A stretch of 32,000 nucleotides of DNA from Candidatus Saccharimonadota bacterium (lineage in GTDB: Bacteria > Patescibacteriota > Gracilibacteria > BD1-5 > UBA2023). The position numbers and the translations under genes are program-made. Where the stretch lies: assembly GCA_963706795.1 (NCBI GenBank), contig OY970170.1, forward strand, positions 630,001 through 662,000, in the 5' to 3' direction. This document shows, in pieces, positions 2,208-19,105 of the stretch. The notes beneath the pieces were generated by a model that did no database searches, had not been told where the DNA came from, and worked only from the letters and a program-made list of their open reading frames with translations. Each line of letters starts with the position of its first letter. Within the stretch, counting starts at the first letter, position 1.

Positions 2208-2765
2208 CTATATCTTCATAATTTCCACTTCCTTCTTATCAAACATAGCGTCGATCTTTTTTCCTTCGGCATCGATTGCCTTTTGGAGATCAGCTTCGTA
2301 GCCTTTGGCGATATCTTCGCTGATTTCTTTGGCAGTTTCAGCAGATTTAATCTTTTTAGCGTAGTCGCTGCGGATATTTCGGACTGCGATTTTGCCATCT
2401 TCGGCGAGTTTTTTGGCGATCTTTACGAGATCACGGCGGCGTTCTTCGGTGAGCGTTGGGATCTTGATCATGATGGATTCACCATTGTTTTGTGGATTGA
2501 GCCCGATATTTGCATCGGTAATCGCACGATCGATATCTTTAATAAGTGCTTTATCCCATGGTTGGATACTGATGGTTTGAGCGTCCATAATACTGACGCT
2601 GGCCACATTACGAAGTGGCTGAGCTGACCCGTAGGCACTGACCATAATACCTTCCACGATAGCTGGATTTGCGCGTCCTACCTGGAGCTTTGCAAACTCG
2701 TTATGAAGATGTTCTTCTGCTTTTAAAAGGTCGTTTGTTAAATTCGATAGCATAAGTAATGTCAA
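2208..2765 (-). CDS. frr: Ribosome recycling factor
   Basis: Intact 185 aa ORF. It reads as RRF over its full length (RANPAIVEGIMVSAYGS...IQPWDK...NPQNNGESIMIKIPTLTEERRRDLVK...RNIRSD). The true start may be the internal Met a few codons in. Confidence 0.95.
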   Translation of the reverse strand: MTLLMLSNLTNDLLKAEEHLHNEFAKLQVGRANPAIVEGIMVSAYGSAQPLRNVASVSIMDAQTISIQPWDKALIKDIDRAITDANIGLNPQNNGESIMIKIPTLTEERRRDLVKIAKKLAEDGKIAVRNIRSDYAKKIKSAETAKEISEDIAKGYEADLQKAIDAEGKKIDAMFDKKEVEIMKI

Positions 2766-3806: not shown

Positions 3807-3904
3807 TTTCTTTGACTTTAGTGCGAAACAATATCTCGGATATTTGCACAGCCAAAGAAACTATGCTAAGGTGAGAACATAACGGATATTTTATCTTCCC
3901 ACAT

Positions 3905-6900
3905 ATGAAGTTATTCCAATCTTACGGTCTTATTCGTGCACTTTTCCAAGAGGCCGAATCTCGTGCGAGTGCACCATCCACTCCAACTACCACTCCTATT
4001 GAGACAGTAAAGTCTACGACAGTTCTCGCTGATGCTGCAAGAGATGCCAAAACAAAGGCGGATCTTCTTTCGGCGATTGCTAACTCTCATCTTCCAGATG
4101 ATCAAAAAGCATCACTTGCTGAGGAAATCAACAGCCAGGAAGAGTTTTCACTGCTCGTAAGTCGCGCAATGTCGGCGCTCCGATCCGGTATGTCCCGAGA
4201 TCAGGTTGCATCGATTTTTGTACAGAGTTCTGGCATTGATGAAGCCAAGGCTCGCAAGCTCGCCGTGAGTGTGGTCGCGGTCTATGAGGATTCTAAAAAA
4301 TCTCTTGGTACACTCTCAAACGTACACAAGACTCTTGCGAGCATTCGCCCAGCATTCGAAGGTCGTCTTCGTTTCAATGATGCACTCGATGTGCTTCTTA
4401 AAAATCCAGAACTCTTTGCGGGCTTTACAAAAAATGACACACGCATTGTATCAAACAATATGGATTCATTTGATGCAAACACTGGATCTCAGCGTCTTGA
4501 GGCTGCGCTTACATCAAGTAACTATTTTGGGCTAGCACAATGGGGTACTGGTGAAAACAACTATACACAGTCAGAACTCGCGGCCATCATCGAACTCCGT
4601 GATGCTATCAATAAGGATCCAAAGACATTTGCACTTCTTAAGAACGGTACAAATATCCAACGAACAGTCCGCATCGTCAAAACTGCAGATGCTATGGACG
4701 AAAAAACAAAGTCACAAAATCAGCTCGCGAAGCTCCTCGACTTTAGTAATGATGGACTTCTTACATCGACCAATCACAAAGAAAAAAGCAGCAATCTCAT
4801 TATTGCGACATTTCAGGGGATATTTGGTGGTGGAAAAGATGCTCAGCTCCATGTTGCGACAGAGCTCGCAATGTATCTCAATCTCAAGGACCGAGCAACG
4901 ACAGAAAAGGGTCTTGTAGATATCATCGCAAAGGTTACTGGTCACGGATCAGAGTATGTGGAGGCACGCCTCGATGATCCAAAGAAGTTCGCTCTTCTCG
5001 TAAAGGAATTCCAGTTTTCGTTCCTCAATCAGGTTGCTGATACTACGCCTCAGGTTGCGGCAAAACTCGATGAAAAAACTTCTCAGGAATATTCATCCGA
5101 AAAGATCAAAGAGCAGAATGCAGCGATGAAATTCATCACTAACGCGCTCAAAAAAGAAGAAATGCCTGCTCTCGTCAATGCTAAGCTCAAGGCTGCCGGT
5201 TATCCTGCACTTGAGGGCAAGACGATGGAAGAACTCCTCGAACGTACGGCTTTCCAGATTTCTCTTAATCCACGTTTCTACTCATCAGTCGGAGCAAAGA
5301 TGAGTGTGACCGAAAAGACGTACAACAAAGAGATCATCACTGAAAATGTAAAGCTCATCCACACAATCGAAATTACCAACGATATCACACACGATCCAGG
5401 TACAACTATCGAACACACAAAAACAATCGATACCAAGACGTTACTTGATCGCAATGTCGTGATTGATGGGAATACTGGTAAAGTCATCTCTGATACCACT
5501 GTGGATACTGGTAAAAAGAATGTCACCATTACCGAAGCAACAAAGACCGTCCAGACTCGTACGCCAAGTGATACTTGGAAGTTCACAAAGGTTGATAAAG
5601 GAACTCAGACCGTAGTTGGTAAGACCGAAGTCACTCGTGAATCTGAAACAAAACGCGCATCTAAGCTCATCCCACATATCGTGGTTGGATTTAATCTCGG
5701 TGCATTCCAGGTGGAAGGCAAGGGATATTCGGCTGATGCTGGTGTCGGGGTCTCTGCAGTAGCTGGAGCTGATGGGGTTGTATTCCCAATCTCAGTTTCT
5801 GGTCGCGCAGACGTGGGCGTAGTAAACCGAAATGAATTTCTCCAGACAAGTAATCTCAAGGGTAATTTCACCGTTGGTGGCGAACTTGGATTTACAAAGA
5901 CGGCTGGAAATTCGGTGGTTCCATCGCTCGGATTTAATATCAATCCAAATAACGCGATCGATACTATCAAAGAAAAGCGTGTCGAGATCAAGGAGCTCTG
6001 GCCACTTCTCGGACTTACCCCAGATGGAAAGCTCGATGATAGCAAGATCCAGGCCCGACTTGCTGATCTCATCAAGGAGGCAAACTCAAAAAATCCCGTA
6101 GATGAAGAAATTCTCATGCGAGTTTCTATCATGATGAAGATGCTCGATGGAACAAAGAAGGTTGTTGAAACAACGAACATGACTGACGAGCAAAAACTCC
6201 ATGTACTTCGTAAGACTGCGTCTTTTGAAAAGACATATATGGCTATGGTTCATCAGAACCTCAGCGGACTTCGTGTTGCGGGTGTGAATATCACGGTTAT
6301 CCCAATGATCCATGCGATCTTCTTGGGTCTCAATCTCCAATATGTGAGTCATTCTGCCTCAAAGGACAAGGGAGTTGATGCTACCGAGAGCAAGGTTTTG
6401 AGTAAGAAGCACGCTGATCTTGCAAATGCCGAAACAATCAAAAAGTATGTAACGAGCTTTGATAAAACAACCGGAAGTATCTTGGTTAATCGAGCGGATG
6501 TTGAGGCAGGTATCGTCGTAATTGGCGAATCTCTTCAATCAACTGCCGAAGGAAATAACATCCGCGTAACTCCTCCAGTTACGAGCAAGCTCCGCATTGA
6601 GAGTCAATATTTTGTTACCGGAGAAGGAATTGCCACAACCGGTATCTCAATCGGTGAGGAAAAGGGATTACCAGCTGTCGCAGCTGCTCCAAGCGCTCCC
6701 GTTGCTCCAACAGAAGCTGGTGGCGAATTTAAGAACAGCTATGACAAAGATCTCTTTGGTAAGCAGATTCGCGATGAGCTCTTTGCTCTCGCTCATGATT
6801 CACGCAATACTGCGTTTATCAAGGCACTCAATAGCCTCATGGGTCACAGTGACTATGCCGGAGCTGAGGATCTCATCCGCAAGGGTGGAAAGAAACTCAA

Positions 6901-8074
6901 ATTCCTCACGATTGCGCTCGACAATCCAGGTGCCGACAAAGAAGCCATCATCCGCAATGCGCTTCTCGTAACTTCTGGTGGACGCGAAACTCGTGGTAAA
7001 GAAATCACGTATTCGACTGCAAAGCGAGTACATGATCGCACAAAGAACGCATTTGTTCGTCAGTTGGGCGTAACTGAGGCAGATTATGATGTGTTCATAA
7101 AAGCATACAATAAGTATGATGATCTCCTCATGCGCAATGAAAAGAACGCTAGTGTTCAGGAAGGCGGTCTCAATAAGAACGAAAAAGTAAAATCAGCACC
7201 ACTCTCGCTCATTCTCGGTAACGAAAAAGCGAACTACCGTGAGATTTCAGGAGTTGTAAATTTTGCTCAGATCGATAATCGTACTCACAAACCAACAGTT
7301 CGTGGAACATTCCCATTTAATGGTGACATCAGTGTTATTGGTGGATCAGCCGAAGTTGGAAATGGAGTTATGAAGGGATACATCCTCGGACTCATCGAAA
7401 AGTCTGGTGATCTCCAAAAAAATCTCGACAAAGCCAACAAGGCTATCCCAGGAGCTCGCAAATTCTCTATGGATGAATACAAGAGCTTCCTTCTCGAGGG
7501 TACGCTTCCTACAGACCTTGCAAATGTTGTATCTGCTGAACCAAAGGCAAAGTTTATCACGACTCGTGCTATGCTCCCAGGATCTGAGTGTATCAATGAC
7601 ATCTACGCAATTGCCTTCCCAGTAGTAAAACCGCTCGCAGGTCGTGCAGAAGTTGCACCACCACTCGATCATTCTCCAATCATCATCGAAAAGGAACAAG
7701 GAAATACCTACACAAATCAGGATGGTGTTTCGAGTTTGACACTCGGTATTGATTACCGAAAGGCATTAGTACAGGAGGCTTTCAATGAGTCTGTGCGCAG
7801 AAAAAATATAACAACAGAAGAAAAGGTGGAAACAAGGACAACTAATAAGGATCTTCCGCCAGGAGAATCATTTAAGACAGTGACTACTGGAAATCCTGTC
7901 ATTACAACAACGACAACGACTACTCCGAAGACTCCAGACATTCCAGTGAAACCAGTTGACGATACTAAAACGCCATCCACAAAACCAGTAGAAACACCAA
8001 CGCTTCCAAATGTAAATGGTGGAACTAACAACAACGGTGGTAATCAGACAACAACAGTTACCGAAGGCTTCTAA
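3905..8074 (+). CDS. Giant orphan protein (1389 aa) with a central beta-rich region and a C-terminal Thr/Pro-rich tail
   Basis: One uninterrupted ORF, with an in-frame TAA at 3881-3883 just upstream. There is no obvious signal peptide. I recognise no family. The tail reads TTTTTTTPKTPDIPVKPVDDTKTPSTKPVETPTLP. Zero UGA codons in 1389 codons. Confidence 0.85.
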   Translation: MKLFQSYGLIRALFQEAESRASAPSTPTTTPIETVKSTTVLADAARDAKTKADLLSAIANSHLPDDQKASLAEEINSQEEFSLLVSRAMSALRSGMSRDQVASIFVQSSGIDEAKARKLAVSVVAVYEDSKKSLGTLSNVHKTLASIRPAFEGRLRFNDALDVLLKNPELFAGFTKNDTRIVSNNMDSFDANTGSQRLEAALTSSNYFGLAQWGTGENNYTQSELAAIIELRDAINKDPKTFALLKNGTNIQRTVRIVKTADAMDEKTKSQNQLAKLLDFSNDGLLTSTNHKEKSSNLIIATFQGIFGGGKDAQLHVATELAMYLNLKDRATTEKGLVDIIAKVTGHGSEYVEARLDDPKKFALLVKEFQFSFLNQVADTTPQVAAKLDEKTSQEYSSEKIKEQNAAMKFITNALKKEEMPALVNAKLKAAGYPALEGKTMEELLERTAFQISLNPRFYSSVGAKMSVTEKTYNKEIITENVKLIHTIEITNDITHDPGTTIEHTKTIDTKTLLDRNVVIDGNTGKVISDTTVDTGKKNVTITEATKTVQTRTPSDTWKFTKVDKGTQTVVGKTEVTRESETKRASKLIPHIVVGFNLGAFQVEGKGYSADAGVGVSAVAGADGVVFPISVSGRADVGVVNRNEFLQTSNLKGNFTVGGELGFTKTAGNSVVPSLGFNINPNNAIDTIKEKRVEIKELWPLLGLTPDGKLDDSKIQARLADLIKEANSKNPVDEEILMRVSIMMKMLDGTKKVVETTNMTDEQKLHVLRKTASFEKTYMAMVHQNLSGLRVAGVNITVIPMIHAIFLGLNLQYVSHSASKDKGVDATESKVLSKKHADLANAETIKKYVTSFDKTTGSILVNRADVEAGIVVIGESLQSTAEGNNIRVTPPVTSKLRIESQYFVTGEGIATTGISIGEEKGLPAVAAAPSAPVAPTEAGGEFKNSYDKDLFGKQIRDELFALAHDSRNTAFIKALNSLMGHSDYAGAEDLIRKGGKKLKFLTIALDNPGADKEAIIRNALLVTSGGRETRGKEITYSTAKRVHDRTKNAFVRQLGVTEADYDVFIKAYNKYDDLLMRNEKNASVQEGGLNKNEKVKSAPLSLILGNEKANYREISGVVNFAQIDNRTHKPTVRGTFPFNGDISVIGGSAEVGNGVMKGYILGLIEKSGDLQKNLDKANKAIPGARKFSMDEYKSFLLEGTLPTDLANVVSAEPKAKFITTRAMLPGSECINDIYAIAFPVVKPLAGRAEVAPPLDHSPIIIEKEQGNTYTNQDGVSSLTLGIDYRKALVQEAFNESVRRKNITTEEKVETRTTNKDLPPGESFKTVTTGNPVITTTTTTTPKTPDIPVKPVDDTKTPSTKPVETPTLPNVNGGTNNNGGNQTTTVTEGF

Positions 8075-8319: not shown

Positions 8320-11300
8320 ATGAAATATACGGCATATTTTGTAGGATTCCTCCTTTTCCTCTTTCCTGCGTTTGCATTCGCTGCAACCTGTGATCAGACC
8401 TTTGAAGGAACGCTTCGAGTTGGGCAGTGATATAAATTCAGTGACGAATTTACAAACAGTACCGACAATGCGCTCAAGATTGCCGCATTTCGCCCTGAGT
8501 TCAACGAGCAATATGACTACGATGGTGCTGCCGGCGTTATGCATTATGGATGGACGCCATGGATTAGCTCACGAAAGGGTGTTATCCAGCCAGGTGAACA
8601 GGGTATTATAGTTGAGACAGATACGAATTATCCAATCATCTATTCACCACCCGTTCGATCAAAGAATAATCTCACGGTTCGTTACGTAGTCGATTATCGA
8701 CGCCAAGTAAAAGGTGTTTGGAATACTAATATCGAAAGCCACAGTGAATGTAAGTCATACGAAATCACCTGGTGTGGTGATGGAGTAGTGGATTCTCAAT
8801 ATGGAGAACTCTGTGATCAGGGTGCTCAAAATGGGAAGGTAGGTTCAAGTTGTAGTGCCACATGTACGCCCGTTACAACTCCTCCGCTCGATTGTAATCG
8901 CGGTAATGTAACACTTCCACTTACTGCTCCGATTAACTCAGGTACGGCAGGTCTCTGTCAGCCAGGAGTTGCGGTAAATGGCTTTGGTTCTACGATTGCA
9001 GGTACTGCTACAAATTTCTTTTGGGCATGTGGAGCAAGTGCGATTGGTGGTGCATGTAGCGCTACCTATGATACTTCAACCAATGGTGCGCTCTGTACTC
9101 GTGGAAATATCCCACTTCCACTTACGGGAGTAATTACGGTAGCGACTCCAGGACTCTGTCCAGTTGGTCAGACTGCGGAACGCTTTACGGCAACTCCGAA
9201 TGGTACAGGTACCGACTATAGTTGGGCATGTAGTGGTTCGGCTGTAGGAGGATCATGTGCGGCAAGTTTTACAGGTACGCCAGTTACGCCAACTCCGTAT
9301 TCTGCATGTATGCCAGCGAGCCCAACAACGGATTGTTCGGCAAACCAATATGCTACGCTTGCAGCCTGTCTCGTTGCTAATCCAGGAGCCTCAGGTCGTA
9401 CATGTTATCTCAATGATGTAGCGGCTTGTAACGCAACACGAGCAACTCAGTGTCCTGCAACAGTTCTTCCAGGTATTTGTAATAGTCTCACAGCAACTGC
9501 TACGTCTTCAACAACTGGTACTCTCACAACTAACGTGACATGTACAGCGGGAGTTGGCGCCGGAGCAAGTCCAACATTCGCCATCAATTGTGGAAATGGT
9601 CAGACAATCAATGCGGCAACTGGTACTTGTACTTATGCTGCTCCAGGAAACTTTGTAGCTTCGTGTACAGTAAATAACACTACTCCAACACCCGCAGCTT
9701 GTCAGTTACCAATCAGTGTAACCAATGGCGGTGGAGGTGGTCCAGGAGCATGTCGTGCGCTCAATATCCAATCAAGTATTCAGGTAGATAACGGATATCG
9801 TGTTTCATATACTTGTACTGCAAACCCAGGAGTTGCTGGTCCAAACCCAAGTTTCCGCGTAGATTGTGGAAATGGTCAGAGCGTTGGTTCAGATGTCGGA
9901 AGCTGTTTTTATACAGCGGCCAACACCTATAACATGGCTTGTTACGTAGAAAACTCTACAGACTCAGTGAATTGTCAGAAGCCTATCATCGTTGCATCAG
10001 CTGGTGCACCACTCCCAGGTGGAGGTGGTGGTATCGGAGGTGGTGGAGGAAGTGGCTACTGTGGAAACGGCCAGATCGATGCAGGTGAAACCTGTGATGC
10101 TGGAAGCAACGGGGGAGTTCCGATCAATAATGGATTTTGTAATAACTGTCATTCTGGTTGGACAAATCCAGGAGCCTGTGCACGTGGTGCGCTCGACTGT
10201 CCTGCAGGTTGGACAAATCCAGGTGGAAACGGTATCGACATCTACTATCGAGATGGAACAACGAATGCTTCACTCCTCGTACCAAAGATCCGATCGATCG
10301 TTGGTAATGGCGTAAACGTATTTAGTCCTGGTGATGCATTCACGATCCATGCAAACTATCCAATCTATATCGGAGGACTCACAGCTGGCTTCGTCAATAA
10401 CAACACAGGTCTCGTCACTGGAAGCTCAGTCTATCACCCAACTCCAGATACGTGTATCGGAGAAGGAAAGATGCAACTCTACGAAAATGGTCCAACCGTC
10501 AATTGTGGAGATTACACACTCTTTAAGGCGGATGCGAATGGTAAATTTGATGGTACAGCCTTTATCGGTGATACCTCAGGCATCCCAGCAGGTCAGTCGA
10601 GCGCGGATGTGAATCCCTCTCGTTCTGTAGGCTCTGCAGTACGTGAAAATAACTTCTTTGTTGGACTCAACTATCTCATCGAACCAATTCCTGTACGTGT
10701 TGCTCGCTCTGCGATCAGTAATACTGCCGGAGGAAATGCCTATGTTGGAATCCAAGTTGGATATAGCGTAAATTCGATTACGTCATCCTTCATGGATAGC
10801 CTCAAGAAGGGAAACTTCACAGTAACATCTTCGTCGAAGGATATCGCAAGCTCACTCTCTTCTGCTACATCTGAACAAGTCGGCAAGGCAGTCGATGCAA
10901 ATGGAGATCAGAATGCTTCGATCACAAAGTTCTCACAAAGTTCGGATGCTATTGCTAAGACGGTAGTGATTAATTCACAGGCAGACTTCGATACCTTCCT
11001 CTCAAAAGTCGGAGACAATCCAAATCTCTATACGCTTGCCAAGGGAAAAGTCATCATCAATGGCAATCTCCAGCTCTCAGGAGTGAAGACGCTCGTCATC
11101 GATGAAGGAAGACTCGAAATCAATGGCAATATCACCTACGCCGATGCAAATGCCAGCTGGGCATTCGTCATCAAACAAGCTGGAACTGAAAAGAAAGGAA
11201 TCGTCGTTGCTTCATCAGTTACTGATATCGCCGGAGTCTATATTGTCCTCGAGGGTGATATGGTCGGAATGGGTCAAACCATCAATCCACTCGCCGTCGA

Positions 11301-11484
11301 TGGAAACATCAGTGCGAATATCGCTCCACTCGTCAACGACCGAACCTATATCCGAGCAACGCAGAATTCATCGGCACTCTCTACAGGTGTAACGATCAAC
11401 TACTCGACCCGAGCATTCAAGAATCCACCACCGCTCCTCTCGCAGTATCTTGATCAGTACAATCTCGCAAAAATCTCACGATAA
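8320..11484 (+). CDS. Giant secreted Cys-rich repeat protein (1054 aa), putative surface adhesin
   Basis: The track ORF 8539-11484 extends upstream through TGA 8428-8430 to an ATG at 8320. This exposes the signal peptide MKYTAYFVGFLLFLFPAFAFA. Two CG[DN]G..D...E.CD.G motifs occur, near 8773 and 10060. There are two 67 aa tandem Cys modules (8893-9093 and 9094-~9280). There are also two ~90 aa 'CGNGQ' modules (9478-~9750 and 9751-~10060), poly-Gly linkers, and a beta-helix-like C-terminal region. Confidence 0.85.
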
Positions 11485-11874: not shown

Positions 11875-13683
11875 CTACAGATACTTCACCATATAGTCTC
11901 CCTCAAGCACATACCCGCGTTTTGCATAATACGCACGCGCTCCAACTCCAGAGATCACGGCAATTTTTGTGATTTGTGGATATTCTGATCGGACGATATT
12001 CTCGGCACGCTCGATAAGGCGTTTGCCAAATCACATATGTTGTCCACTTCCGTCAGAACTTGCTCCGATACCGATTTGGTCGCCGAAGGTGTGGACTTCT
12101 CGGATGATTGCAGCGCCCTGCAATTGCTCAATAAAATGAGCTTCTCCCGTAAAAATCTGTGAAGGGACTCGTAGCCGCAAGAGCGAGAAGACCGTGCGAT
12201 CTACTGGATCAATAAATTGGAGGAAGTAATCTTTTCCACCGCTTGCCTCATACGATATTTGATCAAGTACCGCATCAGCTGGAATATTGTCCTTGGCGCG
12301 AATCTCTCTCGCAGAAATATCCGAACGCGTCAGTCACTTTTCCTGCATTTTTTCGCTCGTGTGTTCACGGAGATTGGAGAGTTTGGAACCCTCGAGGATC
12401 TCAGATGCTGGAATATCGCGGTAGGCGCGATTAAGCCGGACATATTCGGGGATCATGGCTTCTAGATCGGACATGAGATCAATGAGTGTGTCATCGTCAT
12501 ACGCAGTAAATCCGCCATTTTTCCAGATCTCAGTCAGCTCGGATTTGTCCGTAACGACCATCGGATAAATCTTGAGCTCATCAGGCCTAAAAGCGCTATT
12601 AGCAAAGATTTCCAGCATACTTGCGCGATCCATATCCGGTGTCGAACCCAAGAGATTTGGCATCATATGGGCAACTACCTTAAATCCTGCATCTTTGAGT
12701 AGCCTCGTCGCTTCGGTGGATTCAGTATTACCATGACCACGTTTGTTGAGCTCGTTGATGGCATCATCAGTTGTTTGGTACCCGATTTCTACGCGAGTAA
12801 TTCCATAGTTTAAAAGCCGTTTTATTTCCTCGGCATTAATCCAGTCAGGACGCGTCTCAATCGCCATTCCGATGACACGAGAATGCGCGGTTTCATTTCG
12901 CTTTTTAGCTTCAGCGAGTGATGTAGAAGCCTTCATTTCATAGCTCTTTTTGAGTTTGAATTCTGCGAAGGGATCAGTTTTGTTGGCCTGTGCCTCGAGA
13001 AAACCCTTCATCTCATCAAAAGTTGTGTGCCCGTCATAGATGCTTTTGATCACCATTTCTTGGTATTCGATCGGATAGACACTCCATGTTCCGCCGATAA
13101 TGCGGATGTCGCATTTTTCGATCAAATGACCCGTTAATTCGAGTGACCGAAGTCTATTCTGCACCTGTCGAACAGGATCAAATTCATTCATTTCAGCGCG
13201 CATCACTGCAGGTTCGTGTGGCACGTAACTCTTTGGAAGGTTATCAAAAGTTGGACAATACACGCATTTGCCAGGACATCCCCAAAATTTAGTAAGCAGC
13301 GAAATAACTGCCACTCCTGAGAGCGATCGCACAGCACGTTTGCGGAGGATTCGAATAATTCGCGTATCATTCTCAAGCTTGCCGAGACTGATGAGTTCGC
13401 GATATCGCTCAAGCAGTCGAAAACCTGCTACAGAGCCACTTACTGGGTAACGTGCATAGATGGAATTCGCAAGTTTCTGGAAGTCCTGTTTGTCGGTGAT
13501 CGTTTTGTCCGCGTCGAGCGAGAAGAGAATCTCGTCATAAAGTTCGTTCTGCATGCGAGGATTATATGGCAACTTGCAAAACCGCCTAGTATGACTGCGA
13601 GTCAGCATATGAAATGGCTTCTGATTGCGAAAATCCTGCAAACATTTTTTGACTTTCGGGCCAGCTTTTCTACAATACGTCAC
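11875..13683 (-). CDS. elp3: Elp3-like radical SAM/GNAT enzyme (tRNA wobble-uridine carboxymethylation family)
   Basis: The radical SAM cluster motif is 'CPGKCVYCP', within an Elp3-type core. ORF 12334-13683 continues through TGA 12334-12336 and TGA 12031-12033 into a GNAT domain. That domain contains 'GQHM(G)FGKRL', the acetyl-CoA Q/RxxGxG motif whose first Gly is a UGA. The TAG stop is at 11875-11877. The start is more likely the Met at 13554 ([11 protein letters not shown]) than 13683, which sits 4 nt from the tRNA. Confidence 0.85.
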
Positions 13684-13686
13684 GTT

Positions 13687-13765
13687 GCGAGGGTAACATA
13701 AAAGAGTGAGTGTACTGAGGCTTCAACCCTCGGGTGTGCCGGTTCGAACCCGGTCCCTCGCTCCA
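13687..13765 (+). tRNA. tRNA-Gly(UCA), the UGA-decoding (recoding) tRNA
   Basis: The acceptor is GCGAGGG/CCCTCGC. The anticodon stem is TGAGG/CCTCG. The loop is C-T-TCA-A-C, with the anticodon at 13723-13725. The variable loop is 5 nt. The T arm is GCCGG-TTCGAAC-CCGGT. U73 and CCA are encoded. G1:C72, C2:G71, G3:C70 and U73 match bacterial tRNA-Gly identity elements. The D arm is atypical (a 20 nt D region with no clear GG), so a covariance-model check is needed. Confidence 0.8.
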
Positions 13766-13791
13766 AATTTTGCAGAGTCATACTCTATTCT

Positions 13792-13868
13792 GCGGATGTA
13801 GCTCAATTGGCTAGAGTACCGCCTTGCCATGGCGGCTGTTGTGGGTTCGAGTCCCATCATCCGCTCCA
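13792..13868 (+). tRNA. tRNA-Gly(GCC)
   Basis: Canonical cloverleaf: GCGGATG / GCTC-AATTGGCTA-GAGT / CCGCC-TTGCCAT-GGCGG / CTGTT / GTGGG-TTCGAGT-CCCAT / CATCCGC-T-CCA. The anticodon is at 13826-13828. Confidence 0.95.
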
Positions 13869-14356: not shown

Positions 14357-14695
14357 ATGGCTAATTCCCACGGACTTTCACCCCGCATCGTCAAAAAGCA
14401 AGCTGCAGCCCGCAAGCTCTCAAAAGGAAAAAAGAAATCCTTTGCGGTCTATATCGGCAACGAAAATGCGCAAACTCGTAAAAATACGAGTTTCAAACGA
14501 CGTAAGCACTACATGGAAAACAAGCAAAATTTCCCGTCCAAACGTCTCCCAACCAAGAACATCGAAGCCCTCATGGAGCTCGGAATCCTCGACGAACGCG
14601 GATTCTTCAAGAAAGGGAAGAAGAAGAACTACATAACCAAGTCCATGGTGGATATCAAGGGGTTTGACTATTACGGACTTCCGCGCGCTGCGTAG
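14357..14695 (+). CDS. Very basic hypothetical protein (112 aa), translationally coupled to the acidic ORF
   Basis: The ATG lies 1 nt after the upstream TAA (TAATATG). The protein is Lys/Arg-rich (MANSHGLSPRIVKKQAAARKLSKGKKK...). I recognise no family. Confidence 0.6.
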   Translation: MANSHGLSPRIVKKQAAARKLSKGKKKSFAVYIGNENAQTRKNTSFKRRKHYMENKQNFPSKRLPTKNIEALMELGILDERGFFKKGKKKNYITKSMVDIKGFDYYGLPRAA

Positions 14696-14752: not shown

Positions 14753-14830
14753 GCAGCCGTAGCTCAGTTGGATTAGAGCGCCTCCCTGCGAAGGAGGAGG
14801 TCACTGGTTCGAGCCCAGTCGGTTGCACCA
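14753..14830 (+). tRNA. tRNA-Arg(GCG)
   Basis: Cloverleaf: GCAGCCG / GCTC-AGTTGGATTA-GAGC / CCTCC-CTGCGAA-GGAGG / AGGTC / ACTGG-TTCGAGC-CCAGT / CGGTTGC-A-CCA. The anticodon is at 14788-14790. The 5' half closely resembles E. coli tRNA-Arg. Confidence 0.9.
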
Positions 14831-14891: not shown

Positions 14892-17408
14892 TTATTGAAA
14901 AAGTGCTCGAAGAGTGCTTTTTGTGGTTGATTGGGGTATTATTTGAAATTGATATCCAGTAAATTTTCTTACCCCGTCTCTTGCTCATTCTTCAGTCATT
15001 CTCTGGAATACTAGTTCTTTATATCTCGTATCGAGATTTTCTACTAACTGATCTCATTTACTTTCTATGATATAGATTAACTCAAGTTTTCACGCTGTAT
15101 CTTGTTTTGCAATAATAAAATCAGGATATATTTTATTCTTTCTCCACGCCTGTATCTTGTAGGCACTTTCTTCCACCTTATTTCTCATCCACCATAACAC
15201 CTTTTCTTTTGTTCTGAGTTCTTCTATAACCTCCTTTTCGAGATTATTCATAGTTACATAATCCACTGCCAGATGGAGACACTTTGGATCAGTCTTGAGT
15301 GGCAGAATTGTCTCGCTATCTTCGTCAAATTTTGCTGGAGCTGAATATAATGTTGGAATTGTATAACCTCACTCTTGTGTGATTGCAAGAAATATAGTTC
15401 ACTCAGATACAAGTTTATTAAAAACAATCTCTTCATTTTTATAGCACTCACTTCTGATAAATTTCGAAATTTCATGCGCAATATATCCAAAATCACTTTC
15501 GATAGTGGGTCTATCTATTTTTTTGGATAAATTTCAGACAATTTGTTGAACGAGGTCATAGGATACAAATGGATTCCCAATATATTCTGATATTATTTGA
15601 GAGGTGATATATTCATCTCATCACTCGACATGTTCTTTTTCATATTCTATACCCTCTCAGGCATATTCTCCTCAAAGAAAATATTGGAGATCAGTACCTT
15701 GCATCTTCTGTTTTCCTACAGTTTTTATGAGTACTTCCAAAAGTGGAGCAAGGTCTAGATTATTCCAGTCTATTCGAGGAAGAATATCTGATCTATATGA
15801 CAATGCACGAATCCCGTGAGTATCCTCTATATGCCAAATTGGAAGCGAGAGAGATTCTGGATATTCTTCGATAAATTGAGATTGTATAGAGAAATCTCTA
15901 TACATGAGTCATTTTCCACTTGGTCCTGAGCTTCCTTTGACCGTATCGATTATGTCTTCGAGCCCGTCACTTTCCAGAGATTTTTTGATTCCCTTGAGAA
16001 GCTCCTCACTATCTGAGTGATTGAAATACGCATAACACTGATCGAGTTCCGATATACCTGTACGCTTTGTGTATGGTTGTCTCAAAACACGCCCTATAAG
16101 CTGAGTGAGGGCAGTAGTACTACTGGAAGTAGGAATCACTCATAAAACATAAGCAAAGGGGCAATCCCAGCCCTCCATAAGTGCCTGTTTGGTGATAATA
16201 TATCGTATATCTGAATCTTGAGACATGAGGACCTCATCTTTGAGTTCGTCGATATATGATGATTTTATAGCTATCTGATTGCTTGGTATTCCTATCTCTA
16301 CGAGATACTCTTTTACATCGTCAGCGTGGACATGAAGCCCATCTCTCTTGTCCTTTCCAGTTCTATCCGCTTGGAGGAGTGCTATAGGTCTGATATAGTC
16401 ACCTTTTTGCTCTTTTAGTCCGAGTGCTTTCTTTTCAAGTTCTTCTCTCTTTTCTCGTACATCATGTATGAGTTCCCTCCAGTTATCATTTGACTCTGGA
16501 CGGACATTGATAGGGAGCTTTATCATCTCATCTCTATAGAGGTCCATTCACTTGATAGTGACGAGGATATTCATCCCAGCTTTTGGCGTGGCGGAGAGTC
16601 CTATCATACATCGAGGATTGAGAGAATCGAGAACTCTTCTCTGAGCATCAGTATAGACCTTATGAAACTCATCCACGATAAAAAGCGGATTACATACTCG
16701 TATGATATTTCCGAGACTTGTCTTTATTTGTTTGACTCATAGGAGGTCTTGCTCGAAGCAATCGAGCATAGGGAATTTTTCCACAAGAGCATCTATCTTA
16801 TCTTTCTCATGCTCCATAGGGAAGAAATCCATAAAATTCCCAGAATCTCGAAAGACTCTCAGATTTTCTTTTGTTTCTTGATTGGCTGATTGTATCATCA
16901 CCATAAGCACGACGAGGTTTTCTTGAGTATCTTGCCATCGTATTGCATCGGTTTTTTCGAGTATAAGGGTTCTATCACCACTTACCTGATCGAGCATCTG
17001 CCTATAGGGATTTGTCTTATCTTTGAGCTTCTCTATTGTCTGGAGGTATATAGAATCCGTATGAGTTACCCATACGATGAGTCCTGTTCTCTTTTCGAGG
17101 AATTGGTTTTGATAGTGCTCTACGGTTTTGATACCAAGTAGTGTCTTTCCTCCACCTGTAGGCACTTTGATACAGAGGCGTGGATATATCACTCATGCAC
17201 TTTCTGGAATATCAGAAAAATCCCTATATTCTGGAGTTTTTGTATATATCTCTTTTACTGGAGGAATAAGTGAAGCAATCATAGAGTCGAGTCCTGCCAT
17301 CTTCAATTTCTGGAGTTTATCATTGTACGAAAAAGACTCATCTTTCCATTTTTGGAAAAATGTCTCAAGTGTAAGTACCACTTTTTGTTGAGAGCTTTTT
17401 AGTAACAT
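14892..17408 (-). CDS. res: Type III restriction enzyme Res subunit (838 aa; SF2 helicase plus C-terminal PD-ExK nuclease)
   Basis: One frame, re-stitched through 15 TGAs. Motif I is 'VPTGGGKT', motif II is 'VDEFH', and there is an 'EGWDCP' box. Motif VI is 'QLIGRVLR'. The C-terminal 'YPDF...IIESKG' matches PD...ExK. The TAA stop is at 14892-14894. The start lies 2 nt after the mod stop. Confidence 0.85.
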
Positions 17409-17410
17409 AA

Positions 17411-19105
17411 TTATTTTCTTTGGAATAGATTATAAGGTACTTGTACGAAAGATATATGATTATCATCGAGGACCTCTTTATCGAGGAAGCACGCTGGAGC
17501 ATATACTATTTTCTTTCCCTCTGTAGATTTTACGCTTTCGAGCCAGTCACGAGTGATAGCAAGATTGCGGAGTTCCTCTATAGTATCTGCATATATGAGA
17601 TATACACCTGTATTTCGGTCCTCAGTACATATTTCCCATGTAGAATCTGGATCAGCAATATCATCTATTGGCTTGCCTGTAGCAAGGAAGTAGACATACT
17701 TTGCGAAACTTTCCCAGCTTGGAAGTGATTCTCATTCAAGGATTTTTCGTCACTCAATAGATGGACCAAGATTATAATAGGTAAAACCGACAGCGAGATC
17801 ATATTTTTCTACTACTTTTTTTATGCGGTCACGAGTTATTTCGTGAATAAAATCATATCAAGCTGATTTTGCCTGTGCCTTTTCTGTAAGAGTTTCTGGA
17901 AGTTGTACGAGGATAAATTTTCTATTTCCACCATCCTCTTGATTCAATTCCATAATAGCCTGTGCAGTTGTTCCAGATCCAGCAAAAGAATCAAGAAATA
18001 TTCCATTCTCAGAATTTGGAATAAATCAAAAGAAATACTTGAGCATATGCTTTGATTTCGGATTATCAAAGACTTTTACTCCACCAAACAATTCTGTAAG
18101 TTCGTTTGTACTTCAGCGACCATCCTCATAATAAAGACTTCGGAAACGATCCGAAATATTATCCAATCTTATTTTTGGCTTAATTAAAGTTGTCTCGTCT
18201 TTTCAAAACATTATGTCCTTATTCTTGAGCATATCAATCATCGTTGCCTCTGAAAATCTATATCAATTCGGCGGTAACGAACAAACTTCTCCAGTTAGTG
18301 GATGAACAACATCATATGTATACCCTCAAAGCCGAGTATTTGAGATATCTCAATCATGAAAGACTCATTTTTCATCAACATTATCGTAATGAGTTACTCT
18401 TTTTAAAGCATTTTCATTTTCTCGTATCCATTTTCTGAGTAACTTTTGAATTTTTTCAAAATCATCTCCAAATTCTTCTTTTAGTTCTGCATATTTTGTA
18501 TTTATCATCATTCATCAATGACTCATATTCTTCCAGTAAGTCTGAGAACTCTTATTTTTTGAATATATCAAAACATATTCATGTTCCATTACAATCTGGG
18601 TAGGATTATTATCTGTGGCAGTTTGAACGACTACAGTACCCAAAAAATCACCCTCCCTAAAAATATCATCACATAGAGATCTGAGATTATTTACCTCATT
18701 TTCATCTATCGAAATAAATATCACTCCATCTTCAGCAAGAAGCTCTCTCAAAAGTTTGAGACGAGGAGTCATCATACAGAGCCACTTATCGTGACGAGTC
18801 ATATCCTCTTTATCTATAACTTTTCCGAGCCATTCTTTTATAATGGGACTACTTACATTATCATTATATGCCCAGCCCTCTTTTCCTGTATTGTACGGGG
18901 GGTCAATATATATACATTTTACTTGCCCTTGATATTTCGGGAGGAGAGCCTTCAGAGCGAGGAGATTATCTCATTCTATAAGGAGATTTTCACTCGCATT
19001 TTCACCATCGAGAGAATTTGATTCTACTTTTTCGAGAGTGTGATATGGTACTGAGAGGTGATGATTCCAGACAGCTGATTTTCCTTTAAAATTAAGTGAT
19101 GCCAT
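17411..19105 (-). CDS. mod: Type III R-M Mod subunit (564 aa; beta-class N6-adenine/N4-cytosine DNA methyltransferase)
   Basis: One frame, re-stitched through 13 TGAs. The N-terminal segment reads 'LIE(G)DNLLALKAL'. The catalytic motif IV is 'IDPPYNTG'. It also has 'HDKWLCMMTPRLKLLRELL' and the AdoMet motif I 'DSFAGSGTT'. The mod-res gene order is typical of type III systems. Confidence 0.9.

Follow-up and report, generated by a model that had tools for sequence, protein, structure and literature searches.

How can a tRNA with a uridine at the wobble position read UGA as glycine and still leave UGG to tryptophan and UGU/UGC to cysteine? This question is raised by a 32,000-nt stretch of a Candidatus Saccharimonadota genome (contig OY970170.1, positions 630,001 to 662,000; hereafter the window), placed by GTDB in the Gracilibacteria, BD1-5. 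Here, the gene of an Elp3-type wobble-uridine enzyme stands head-to-head with the gene of tRNA-Gly(UCA), the decoder of UGA. How a U34 tRNA allows UGA (Gly) to be told from UGG (Trp) and from UGU/UGC (Cys) is acknowledged to be unsolved, and Elp3 is a concrete candidate; the UGA/UGG ambiguity of genetic code 25 was flagged as an open problem by Shulgina & Eddy. A first, sequence-only reading of the locus had proposed that Elp3 belongs to the fidelity apparatus of the reassigned codon. The comparison with related genomes favors a more general role, to which we attribute a probability of roughly 60%: Elp3 is probably the general U34 C5-modification enzyme of the lineage, inherited vertically, and tRNA-Gly(UCA) would probably be one of several substrates. 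Support for a wiring of elp3 to the reassigned codon is weak; the head-to-head layout is a clade-level synteny, which generates hypotheses and is not a discovery in itself. Coordinates are those of the window unless a locus is named, and Elp3 was translated with table 25 (UGA = Gly).

The window gene is a genuine stand-alone Elp3, by family and by motifs. Its product matches the NCBIfam Elp3 model TIGR01211 with 482.7 bits (cutoff 350), residues 19-559 lying on profile positions 11-522 of 522. Pfam recognizes Radical_SAM and Radical_SAM_C, and Acetyltransf_1 stays below threshold on this protein. The top matches in the PDB are the Elp3 of D. mccartyi (DmcElp3, 5l7j, 3e-99) and that of M. infernus (MinElp3, 6iaz and related entries, including 6ia8, 2e-98). 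With both, the window protein has in common the architecture of a radical S-adenosylmethionine (SAM) domain followed by a lysine acetyltransferase (KAT) domain of the GNAT type, the CxxxCxxC cluster motif and the acetyl-CoA motif QHxGxG. The latter is intact at residues 505-510 (QHMGFG, aligned to QHRGLG of DmcElp3 and QHMGYG of MinElp3). As in MinElp3, an N-terminal extension precedes the conserved core. The window protein differs from both by an insertion of ~35 residues and by the coding of glycine as UGA. The insertion (residues 176-210, in the radical-SAM domain) breaks the alignment with the structures from Dehalococcoides and Methanocaldococcus in two; it is common to code-25 Elp3 and to some Elp3 from standard-code bacteria within the candidate phyla radiation (CPR). 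The NCBI pipeline already labels the code-25 homologues Elp3. According to the Elongator literature, prokaryotic Elp3 works without the other Elongator subunits. To judge from its sequence, the window protein adds one more member to an established family and most probably acts in the role known for it.

The start of elp3 is placed at Met 13554 because the alignments of homologues from related genomes begin at residue 1-7. An upstream GTG at 13683 was rejected: it lies 3 nt from the tRNA, and the homologues begin at Met 13554. The divergent genes are hence separated by 132 bp, close to the ~130 bp that the sequence-only reading had given. Its description of a full-length radical SAM plus GNAT protein, transcribed away from a tRNA(UCA)/tRNA-Gly(GCC) pair, also holds, with the TIGR01211 match, both motifs and the Rfam tRNA matches as support.

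The reassignment of the codon itself is visible in elp3. For this comparison, one genome per GTDB species was scanned, and the best 80 of 139 close relatives were taken together with the window, giving 81 genes. All of these 80 loci come from Gracilibacteria-type metagenome-assembled genomes (MAGs), some of which are labelled Peribacteria or Patescibacteria. In the alignment, 796 of the 975 in-frame TGA codons (82%) fall in columns with a glycine majority, for a background of 6.7% glycine. Between 1 and 32 such codons are present in 75 of the 80 relatives, and none in the other 5. This placement shows that UGA is glycine in the lineage of the window. In the window gene, one UGA encodes the leading glycine of the acetyl-CoA motif, as had been noticed from the sequence alone. 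The further point that the enzyme thereby depends on the tRNA that it may modify is trivial, since most genes here contain UGA.

The tRNA in question carries the set G1:C72, C2:G71, G3:C70, U73 (GCGAGGG...CCCTCGC-U-CCA) as its glycine identity, the criteria by which Shulgina & Eddy (2021) called tRNA-Gly(UCA). A tRNA-Sec identity was rejected: the 'SeC' label of ARAGORN derives from the anticodon alone, and Rfam gives the general tRNA model, not tRNA-Sec. The gene hardly varies among its 23 genomic and 110 metagenomic copies (L001-L203), from genomes with a G+C content (GC) of 18-60%. Its D-arm is unusual (UAACAUAAAAGAGYGAGUGUA), the anticodon stem shows compensatory changes across the copies and the CCA end is encoded. 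It is usually the first gene in tandem with tRNA-Gly(GCC) or tRNA-Gly(UCC), and tRNA-Arg(GCG) is found alongside it in many related loci. The spacer between elp3 and the tRNA is predicted to hold back-to-back promoters. A sigma-70-like promoter can be proposed for the tRNA unit from the consensus only, and related loci with the divergent arrangement have this -35/-10 pair, too, upstream of tRNA(UCA). A second -10-like element was read by eye, from the aligned spacers, directly ahead of the elp3 start codon.

How far does the pairing of the two genes extend? An elp3 gene was present in each of the 80 fetched species-representative code-25 genomes (the best 80 of the 139 from the elp3 scan). A divergent tRNA(UCA) lies ~96-145 bp upstream in 14 of these 80 loci and at 408 bp in one more, which makes 16 of 81 with the window; in 7 further loci, tRNA(UCA) is at most 10 kb from elp3. 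The Elp3 proteins that show the adjacency are only 55-66% identical to that of the window, and are encoded by genomes with 34-60% GC. A neighbor-joining tree of the 81 code-25 Elp3, rooted with standard-code CPR Elp3, was evaluated with 200 bootstraps. The code-25 sequences form one clade in 200/200 bootstraps; the nodes that bear on the history of the adjacency reach only 41-79%. All adjacent cases fall inside one subclade of 32 leaves, in which adjacency is found in 16 of the 30 assessable loci and a tRNA(UCA) within 10 kb in 22 of 30. By itself the subclade has a bootstrap of 47%, and with its sister group included, 79%. Adjacency is found in 0 of 37 assessable loci of a second clade, whose 39 leaves (bootstrap 99%) are mostly rich in TGA and low in GC. 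Outside the adjacency subclade, tRNA(UCA) is near elp3 in only one locus, at 2 kb. The complete genomes CP042461.1, CP060226.1, OZ245922.1 and OY782392.1 are among those without the adjacency. A single origin of the adjacency within code-25 bacteria is possible, as is an ancestral adjacency that the second clade lost, since the nodes of the tree are weakly supported.

The same was seen from the side of the tRNA. Metagenome contigs were scanned for the anticodon arm, which yielded 120 loci, 110 with a called tRNA(UCA), 90 of them assessable (5' flank of 600 bp or more). A divergent elp3 lies within 150 bp in 6 of these 90 loci and within 1 kb in 9. The tRNA is accompanied more faithfully by the Gly-GCC, Gly-UCC and Arg-GCG tRNA genes, often in tandem and 10-26 nt apart, than by elp3. 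In other code-25 lineages, reading of the sequences gives elp3 other conserved neighbors, unrelated in function: upstream, an RND pump with HlyD-like and AbrB-like proteins; downstream, Nudix and membrane proteins; and in some lineages ribosome recycling factor or DNA ligase. The linkage between elp3 and tRNA(UCA) is therefore genuine yet lineage-restricted, confined to one branch of code-25 bacteria. As a sign of UGA fidelity, as it had first been taken, it stands in so far as the divergent pair persists in 16 of 81 genes at 55-66% identity; the 0/37 of the sister clade and the 6/90 from the tRNA side speak against it.

In one code-25 subclade (L004, L007, L008, L009 and L022), the gene of ribosome recycling factor, frr, shares the strand of elp3 and lies upstream of it, as its immediate neighbor in three of these five loci. 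The window also has frr, 9 kb from elp3. No translation-related partner was found in the elp3 flanks of the window.

Elp3 is not a property of code 25. A homologue 68% identical to the window Elp3 was used as the query in an exhaustive search of 1.84 billion protein cluster representatives. The code-25 Elp3 fall into essentially one 50% cluster, and the next-best full-length matches have 42-45% identity and 440-450 bits. The closest proteins outside the clade belong to standard-code Patescibacteria (Peregrinibacteria OIO53030.1, from a MAG, Portnoybacteria OGZ32176.1 and Falkowbacteria PIT95444.1); the archaeal and Dehalococcoides structures score lower, at ~335 bits. Of 8000 candidates scored with the Peregrinibacteria Elp3 as query, 7950 were significant relatives. 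The organism names visible in the top 120 are all of Patescibacteria type or "unclassified bacterium", most matches carrying no name. Named standard-code sources are Portnoybacteria, Falkowbacteria, Peregrinibacteria, Parcubacteria and the Patescibacteria group. These loci use the standard code, since elp3 has no in-frame TGA at five of them and ends in TGA at two; tRNA(UCA) was not found near elp3 in the three that were scanned for tRNAs. Elp3 is thus neither restricted to nor enriched in genomes with tRNA(UCA). It was most likely inherited vertically within Patescibacteria, as suggested by the single code-25 clade and by nearest outside relatives from the CPR, including Peregrinibacteria. 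The sequence-only reading had tied Elp3 to code 25, and half of what it had named as counting against the tie was found: the enzyme is equally present in standard-code relatives without a nearby tRNA(UCA).

The same reading had called Elp3 rare in bacteria. This agrees with the Elongator literature, which treats bacterial Elp3 as a rarity confined to Dehalococcoides, and fails within Patescibacteria, where the protein is widespread; a 2026 paper mentions Elp3 in 'numerous bacteria'. Literature searches found no paper in which Elp3 is tied to code 25, and none of relevance in which Elp3, MnmG or tRNA modification is tied to Gracilibacteria, Patescibacteria or CPR, the one co-mention of Elp3 and Gracilibacteria being coincidental. 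The distribution of Elp3 across Patescibacteria, often with a Trm9-like methyltransferase, is wider than the Elongator field assumes.

This methyltransferase is of class I and 196-237 aa long. It occurs in four standard-code loci, divergent to elp3 at 35-535 bp in three of them and 9 kb away in the fourth. The four proteins are orthologous and mutually 34-42% identical. For the one that was queried, the best match among solved structures is Trm9 (5cm2_Z, 8e-15), nearly full length and with the RYYH motif included; NCBIfam has no model specific to the CPR protein. Trm9 is the methyltransferase that turns cm5U, the product of Elp3, into mcm5U. The two genes stand side by side in standard-code CPR and recall the eukaryotic/archaeal Elp3-Trm9 route to mcm5U34, which suggests that these bacteria use an archaeal/eukaryotic-type wobble pathway. 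In comparison with the eukaryotic route, the CPR methyltransferase is assigned by a single match at 8e-15, and neither Trm112 nor other Elongator subunits were seen, no search aimed at them having been made. In the standard-code loci, elp3 has TGA as a stop and the methyltransferase as its divergent neighbor, whereas in the window UGA is glycine and the divergent neighbor is the tRNA. The window contains no Trm9-like gene; a homologue sharing the motifs was seen at one code-25 locus (L040), 3.2 kb from elp3. Because standard-code relatives have this Trm9-like partner, they support the view that the code-25 lineage inherited Elp3 as a working wobble enzyme.

What would such an enzyme do for the UGA decoder? 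An xm5U-type modification at U34 blocks pyrimidine-ending codons and stabilizes U-G wobble. The tRNA-Trp(UCA) of mitochondria and Mycoplasma, with xm5U, reads both UGA and UGG; in yeast, mcm5U favors G-ending codons. tRNA-Gly(UCC) is xm5U-modified in E. coli and in yeast. Elp3 is hence expected to shield UGU/UGC (Cys), and not UGG: xm5U bars pyrimidines and stabilizes U-G. The sequence-only reading had it the other way, with xm5U restricting the reading of UGG, a codon that the modification tends to favor by the wobble rules. The comparison with tRNA-Trp(UCA) points the same way. Both tRNAs use U34 and the anticodon UCA to decode a reassigned UGA, and tRNA-Trp bears xm5U34. However, tRNA-Trp(UCA) must read UGG, and tRNA-Gly(UCA) must not. 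The analogy argues against xm5U as a device that excludes UGG.

By analogy with its family, Elp3 would bind the anticodon stem-loop and cleave SAM to a 5'-deoxyadenosyl radical; acetate derived from acetyl-CoA would then serve for carboxymethylation at C5 of U34 (cm5U34). Its substrates would be all split-box U34 tRNAs. tRNA-Gly(UCA) is a plausible one because its U34 serves the Cys/Gly/Trp split box and the genomes also contain tRNA-Gly(UCC), whose E. coli and yeast counterpart bears xm5U. Once modified, tRNA-Gly(UCA) would be kept from misreading UGU/UGC (Cys). UGG would have to be excluded by another means, such as competition from tRNA-Trp(CCA). The divergent elp3/tRNA-Gly(UCA) arrangement would be an old, locally conserved pair in one code-25 branch, in which the tRNA has a strong predicted promoter of its own.

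Another bacterial route, MnmE-MnmG (cmnm5U34), has the same target as Elp3, C5 of U34 in split-box tRNAs, with the same restriction to purine-ending codons. The enzymes are unrelated: MnmE-MnmG relies on a GTPase with flavin adenine dinucleotide, methylene-tetrahydrofolate and glycine, whereas Elp3 uses radical SAM chemistry and acetyl-CoA. MnmE, MnmG and MnmA were probed by tblastn with E. coli sequences in 1.32 Mb plus 0.82 Mb of scattered code-25 loci (~2.1 Mb). In this DNA, Elp3 is the sole C5 wobble-uridine enzyme detected. Of the three, MnmA (s2U34) was the only one found: L026 and L028 each have a homologue ~6 kb upstream of elp3, with 38-42% identity to the E. coli protein, and a combined xm5s2U-type modification is therefore possible in these organisms. 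tRNA-Gly(UCC) is present in code-25 contigs, at times in tandem with tRNA(UCA). Elp3, MnmE, MnmG and MnmA all go unmentioned in the supplements to the papers on Vampirococcus and on groundwater Gracilibacteria. The gene table of Southlakia (a Saccharibacterium) lists MnmA, and not MnmE, MnmG or Elp3; it covers one cultivated standard-code CPR genome and is possibly incomplete.

Some observations weigh against Elp3 as a general, inherited enzyme. The code-25 Elp3 clade stands on a long stem in the neighbor-joining tree, and it has lost the CxCxxC zinc motif: Cys occupies the three columns (447, 449 and 452 of the alignment; Elp3 residues 410-415) in 0 of 81 code-25 sequences, versus 11 of 11 standard-code CPR sequences. 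Together, stem and loss may reflect a functional change that coincided with the code change; the loss of the motif may be drift, or remodelling alongside that change. Furthermore, tRNA(UCA) is the best-conserved neighbor of elp3 in the adjacency subclade, the flanking protein genes being common to the closest relatives only. Such persistence of the tRNA goes beyond simple inertia, and leaves room for a functional or regulatory coupling. The apparent lack of MnmE and MnmG, for its part, is weak evidence: it comes from the ~2.1 Mb probed with E. coli sequences, less than 2 genome equivalents scattered over ~200 genomes. With the stem, the lost motif and the conserved tRNA neighbor in favor of this, Elp3 could instead be a dedicated or co-adapted part of UGA fidelity, the layout coupling the expression of enzyme and tRNA-Gly(UCA) and the modification tuning UGA versus UGG/UGY. 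The pair is kept at ~100-145 bp in 16 genes, across Elp3 of 55-66% identity and genomes of 34-60% GC, without conserved protein neighbors; elp3 is in all 80 fetched code-25 genomes; and the decoding ambiguity is an acknowledged problem. In standard-code relatives the divergent slot is held by a Trm9-like pathway partner, and the slot therefore tends toward related genes. However, the linkage is missing from the whole assessable part of the 99% clade (0/37) and from more than 90% of the metagenomic tRNA(UCA) loci, and Elp3 is equally present in standard-code CPR. Moreover, elp3 and the tRNA have separate predicted promoters and no shared transcript, and xm5U, which favors U-G pairing by established wobble rules, gives no UGG protection alone. 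We regard a dedicated fidelity role as unlikely. Distinctly unlikely is also a version in which the inherited Elp3 pathway was co-opted for the UGA decoder: xcm5U34 would keep the tRNA off UGU/UGC, perhaps with a further modification to keep it off UGG, Elp3 would have been remodelled at the code change and the tRNA would have taken the slot of the Trm9-like gene, coupling expression. Since the adjacency holds in one branch only and Elp3 is common in standard-code relatives, the enzyme does not appear to have been built for the reassignment.

At the other extreme, the adjacency could be a historical accident: a tRNA cluster came by chance to lie beside elp3 in one ancestor, tRNA-Gly(UCA) is no substrate of Elp3, and the pair persists because a ~100-bp spacer filled with promoters leaves few sites for breakpoints. 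The restriction of the adjacency to one clade fits this explanation, as do the unrelated conserved neighbors of elp3 elsewhere (RND pump with HlyD-like protein, Nudix hydrolase, ribosome recycling factor, DNA ligase) and the more consistent company of Gly-GCC, Gly-UCC and Arg-GCG around tRNA(UCA). It is nonetheless doubtful. A U34 left unmodified in the Cys/Gly/Trp split box would be expected to misread UGU/UGC, no C5 wobble-uridine enzyme other than Elp3 was detected in the DNA examined and the adjacency outlasts every protein-coding neighbor in the subclade. It is very improbable that the protein is a lysine acetyltransferase, or has another radical-SAM function, and does not modify tRNA. 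The lost zinc motif and the ~35-residue insertion relative to the solved prokaryotic structures could be taken in that sense, but the full-length match to the Elp3 model and the two intact catalytic motifs contradict it. In the Elongator literature, it is tRNA, and not peptides, that triggers the hydrolysis of acetyl-CoA by Elp3 from bacteria, archaea and eukaryotes, and the eukaryotic Elp3 is also without the zinc motif, yet is a tRNA enzyme. A general U34 enzyme, with tRNA-Gly(UCA) as one of its probable substrates, remains the reading that we prefer. The features discussed are collected in Table 1.

Table 1. Positions of the features in the window and, where a locus is named, in related loci.
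Feature	Position	Strand	Remarks
elp3, stand-alone Elp3 (radical SAM + GNAT/KAT)	11875..13554	-	559 aa; ATG 13554, TAG 11877-11875; TIGR01211, Pfam and PDB matches
Radical-SAM cluster motif CPGKCVYC (CxxxCxxC), residues 93-100	13261..13284	-	aligned to CPGKCIYC of DmcElp3
Insertion in radical-SAM domain	~13027..12925	-	
Lost zinc site	12298-12327	-	
In-frame UGA = Gly407, linker region of Elp3	12334..12336	-	column Gly in 74/81, TGA-encoded in 35/81
In-frame UGA = Gly508, first Gly of acetyl-CoA QHxGxG	12031..12033	-	column Gly in 80/80 with a residue there, TGA-encoded in 12/81
Divergent intergenic region, predicted back-to-back promoters	13555..13686	.	132 bp; sequence reading; tRNA-proximal motif kept in 16 loci
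Sigma-70-like promoter of the tRNA(UCA)-tRNA-Gly(GCC) unit, TTGACT-16-TACAAT	13649..13676	+	predicted; 10/12 consensus matches
tRNA-Gly(UCA), UGA decoder	13687..13765	+	79 nt, encoded CCA; ARAGORN anticodon tca; Rfam tRNA RF00005, 44.9 bits (gathering score 29)
tRNA-Gly(GCC)	13792..13868	+	26 nt past tRNA(UCA), tandem; ARAGORN; Rfam tRNA model
Basic 112-aa open reading frame	14357-14695	+	
tRNA-Arg(GCG)	14753..14830	+	~900 nt past tRNA-Gly(GCC), recurrent tRNA neighborhood; ARAGORN; Rfam tRNA model
Type III restriction-modification system	14892-19105	-	
Res helicase subunit	14892-17408	-	
N6/N4 DNA methylase	17411-19105	-	
Large secreted/surface protein	8320-11484	+	1054 aa
Large secreted/surface protein	3863-8074	+	1403 aa
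frr	2208-2753	-	
Trm9-like methyltransferase	L204:9255-9965	-	standard-code locus
Trm9-like methyltransferase	L205:9355-9945	-	standard-code locus
Trm9-like methyltransferase	L083:8752-9465	-	standard-code locus
Trm9-like methyltransferase	L206:15719-16423	+	standard-code locus
Trm9-like methyltransferase homologue	L040:13369-14133	-	code-25 locus
MnmA homologue	L026:3708-4688		code-25 locus
MnmA homologue	L028:2833-3885		code-25 locus

The remaining genes of the window near elp3 are of other kinds. Downstream of elp3, and convergent with it, lie the genes of two very large secreted or surface proteins. The 1054-aa protein is rich in Cys, Gly and Thr, with repeated CxxG modules, and its family is common to the closest relatives only. 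On the other side, a conserved, very basic open reading frame (MANSHGL...KKGKKKNYITKSMVD...) stands between tRNA-Gly(GCC) and tRNA-Arg(GCG). It has no match in Pfam and is found at the same place in 7 loci. Directly beside tRNA-Arg(GCG) follows a type III restriction-modification system, composed of a Res helicase subunit and an N6/N4 DNA methylase. This stretch has a low GC of 0.34-0.37, compared with ~0.45, and may have been inserted beside the tRNA cluster as an island. Its res gene alone carries 15 in-frame TGA codons.

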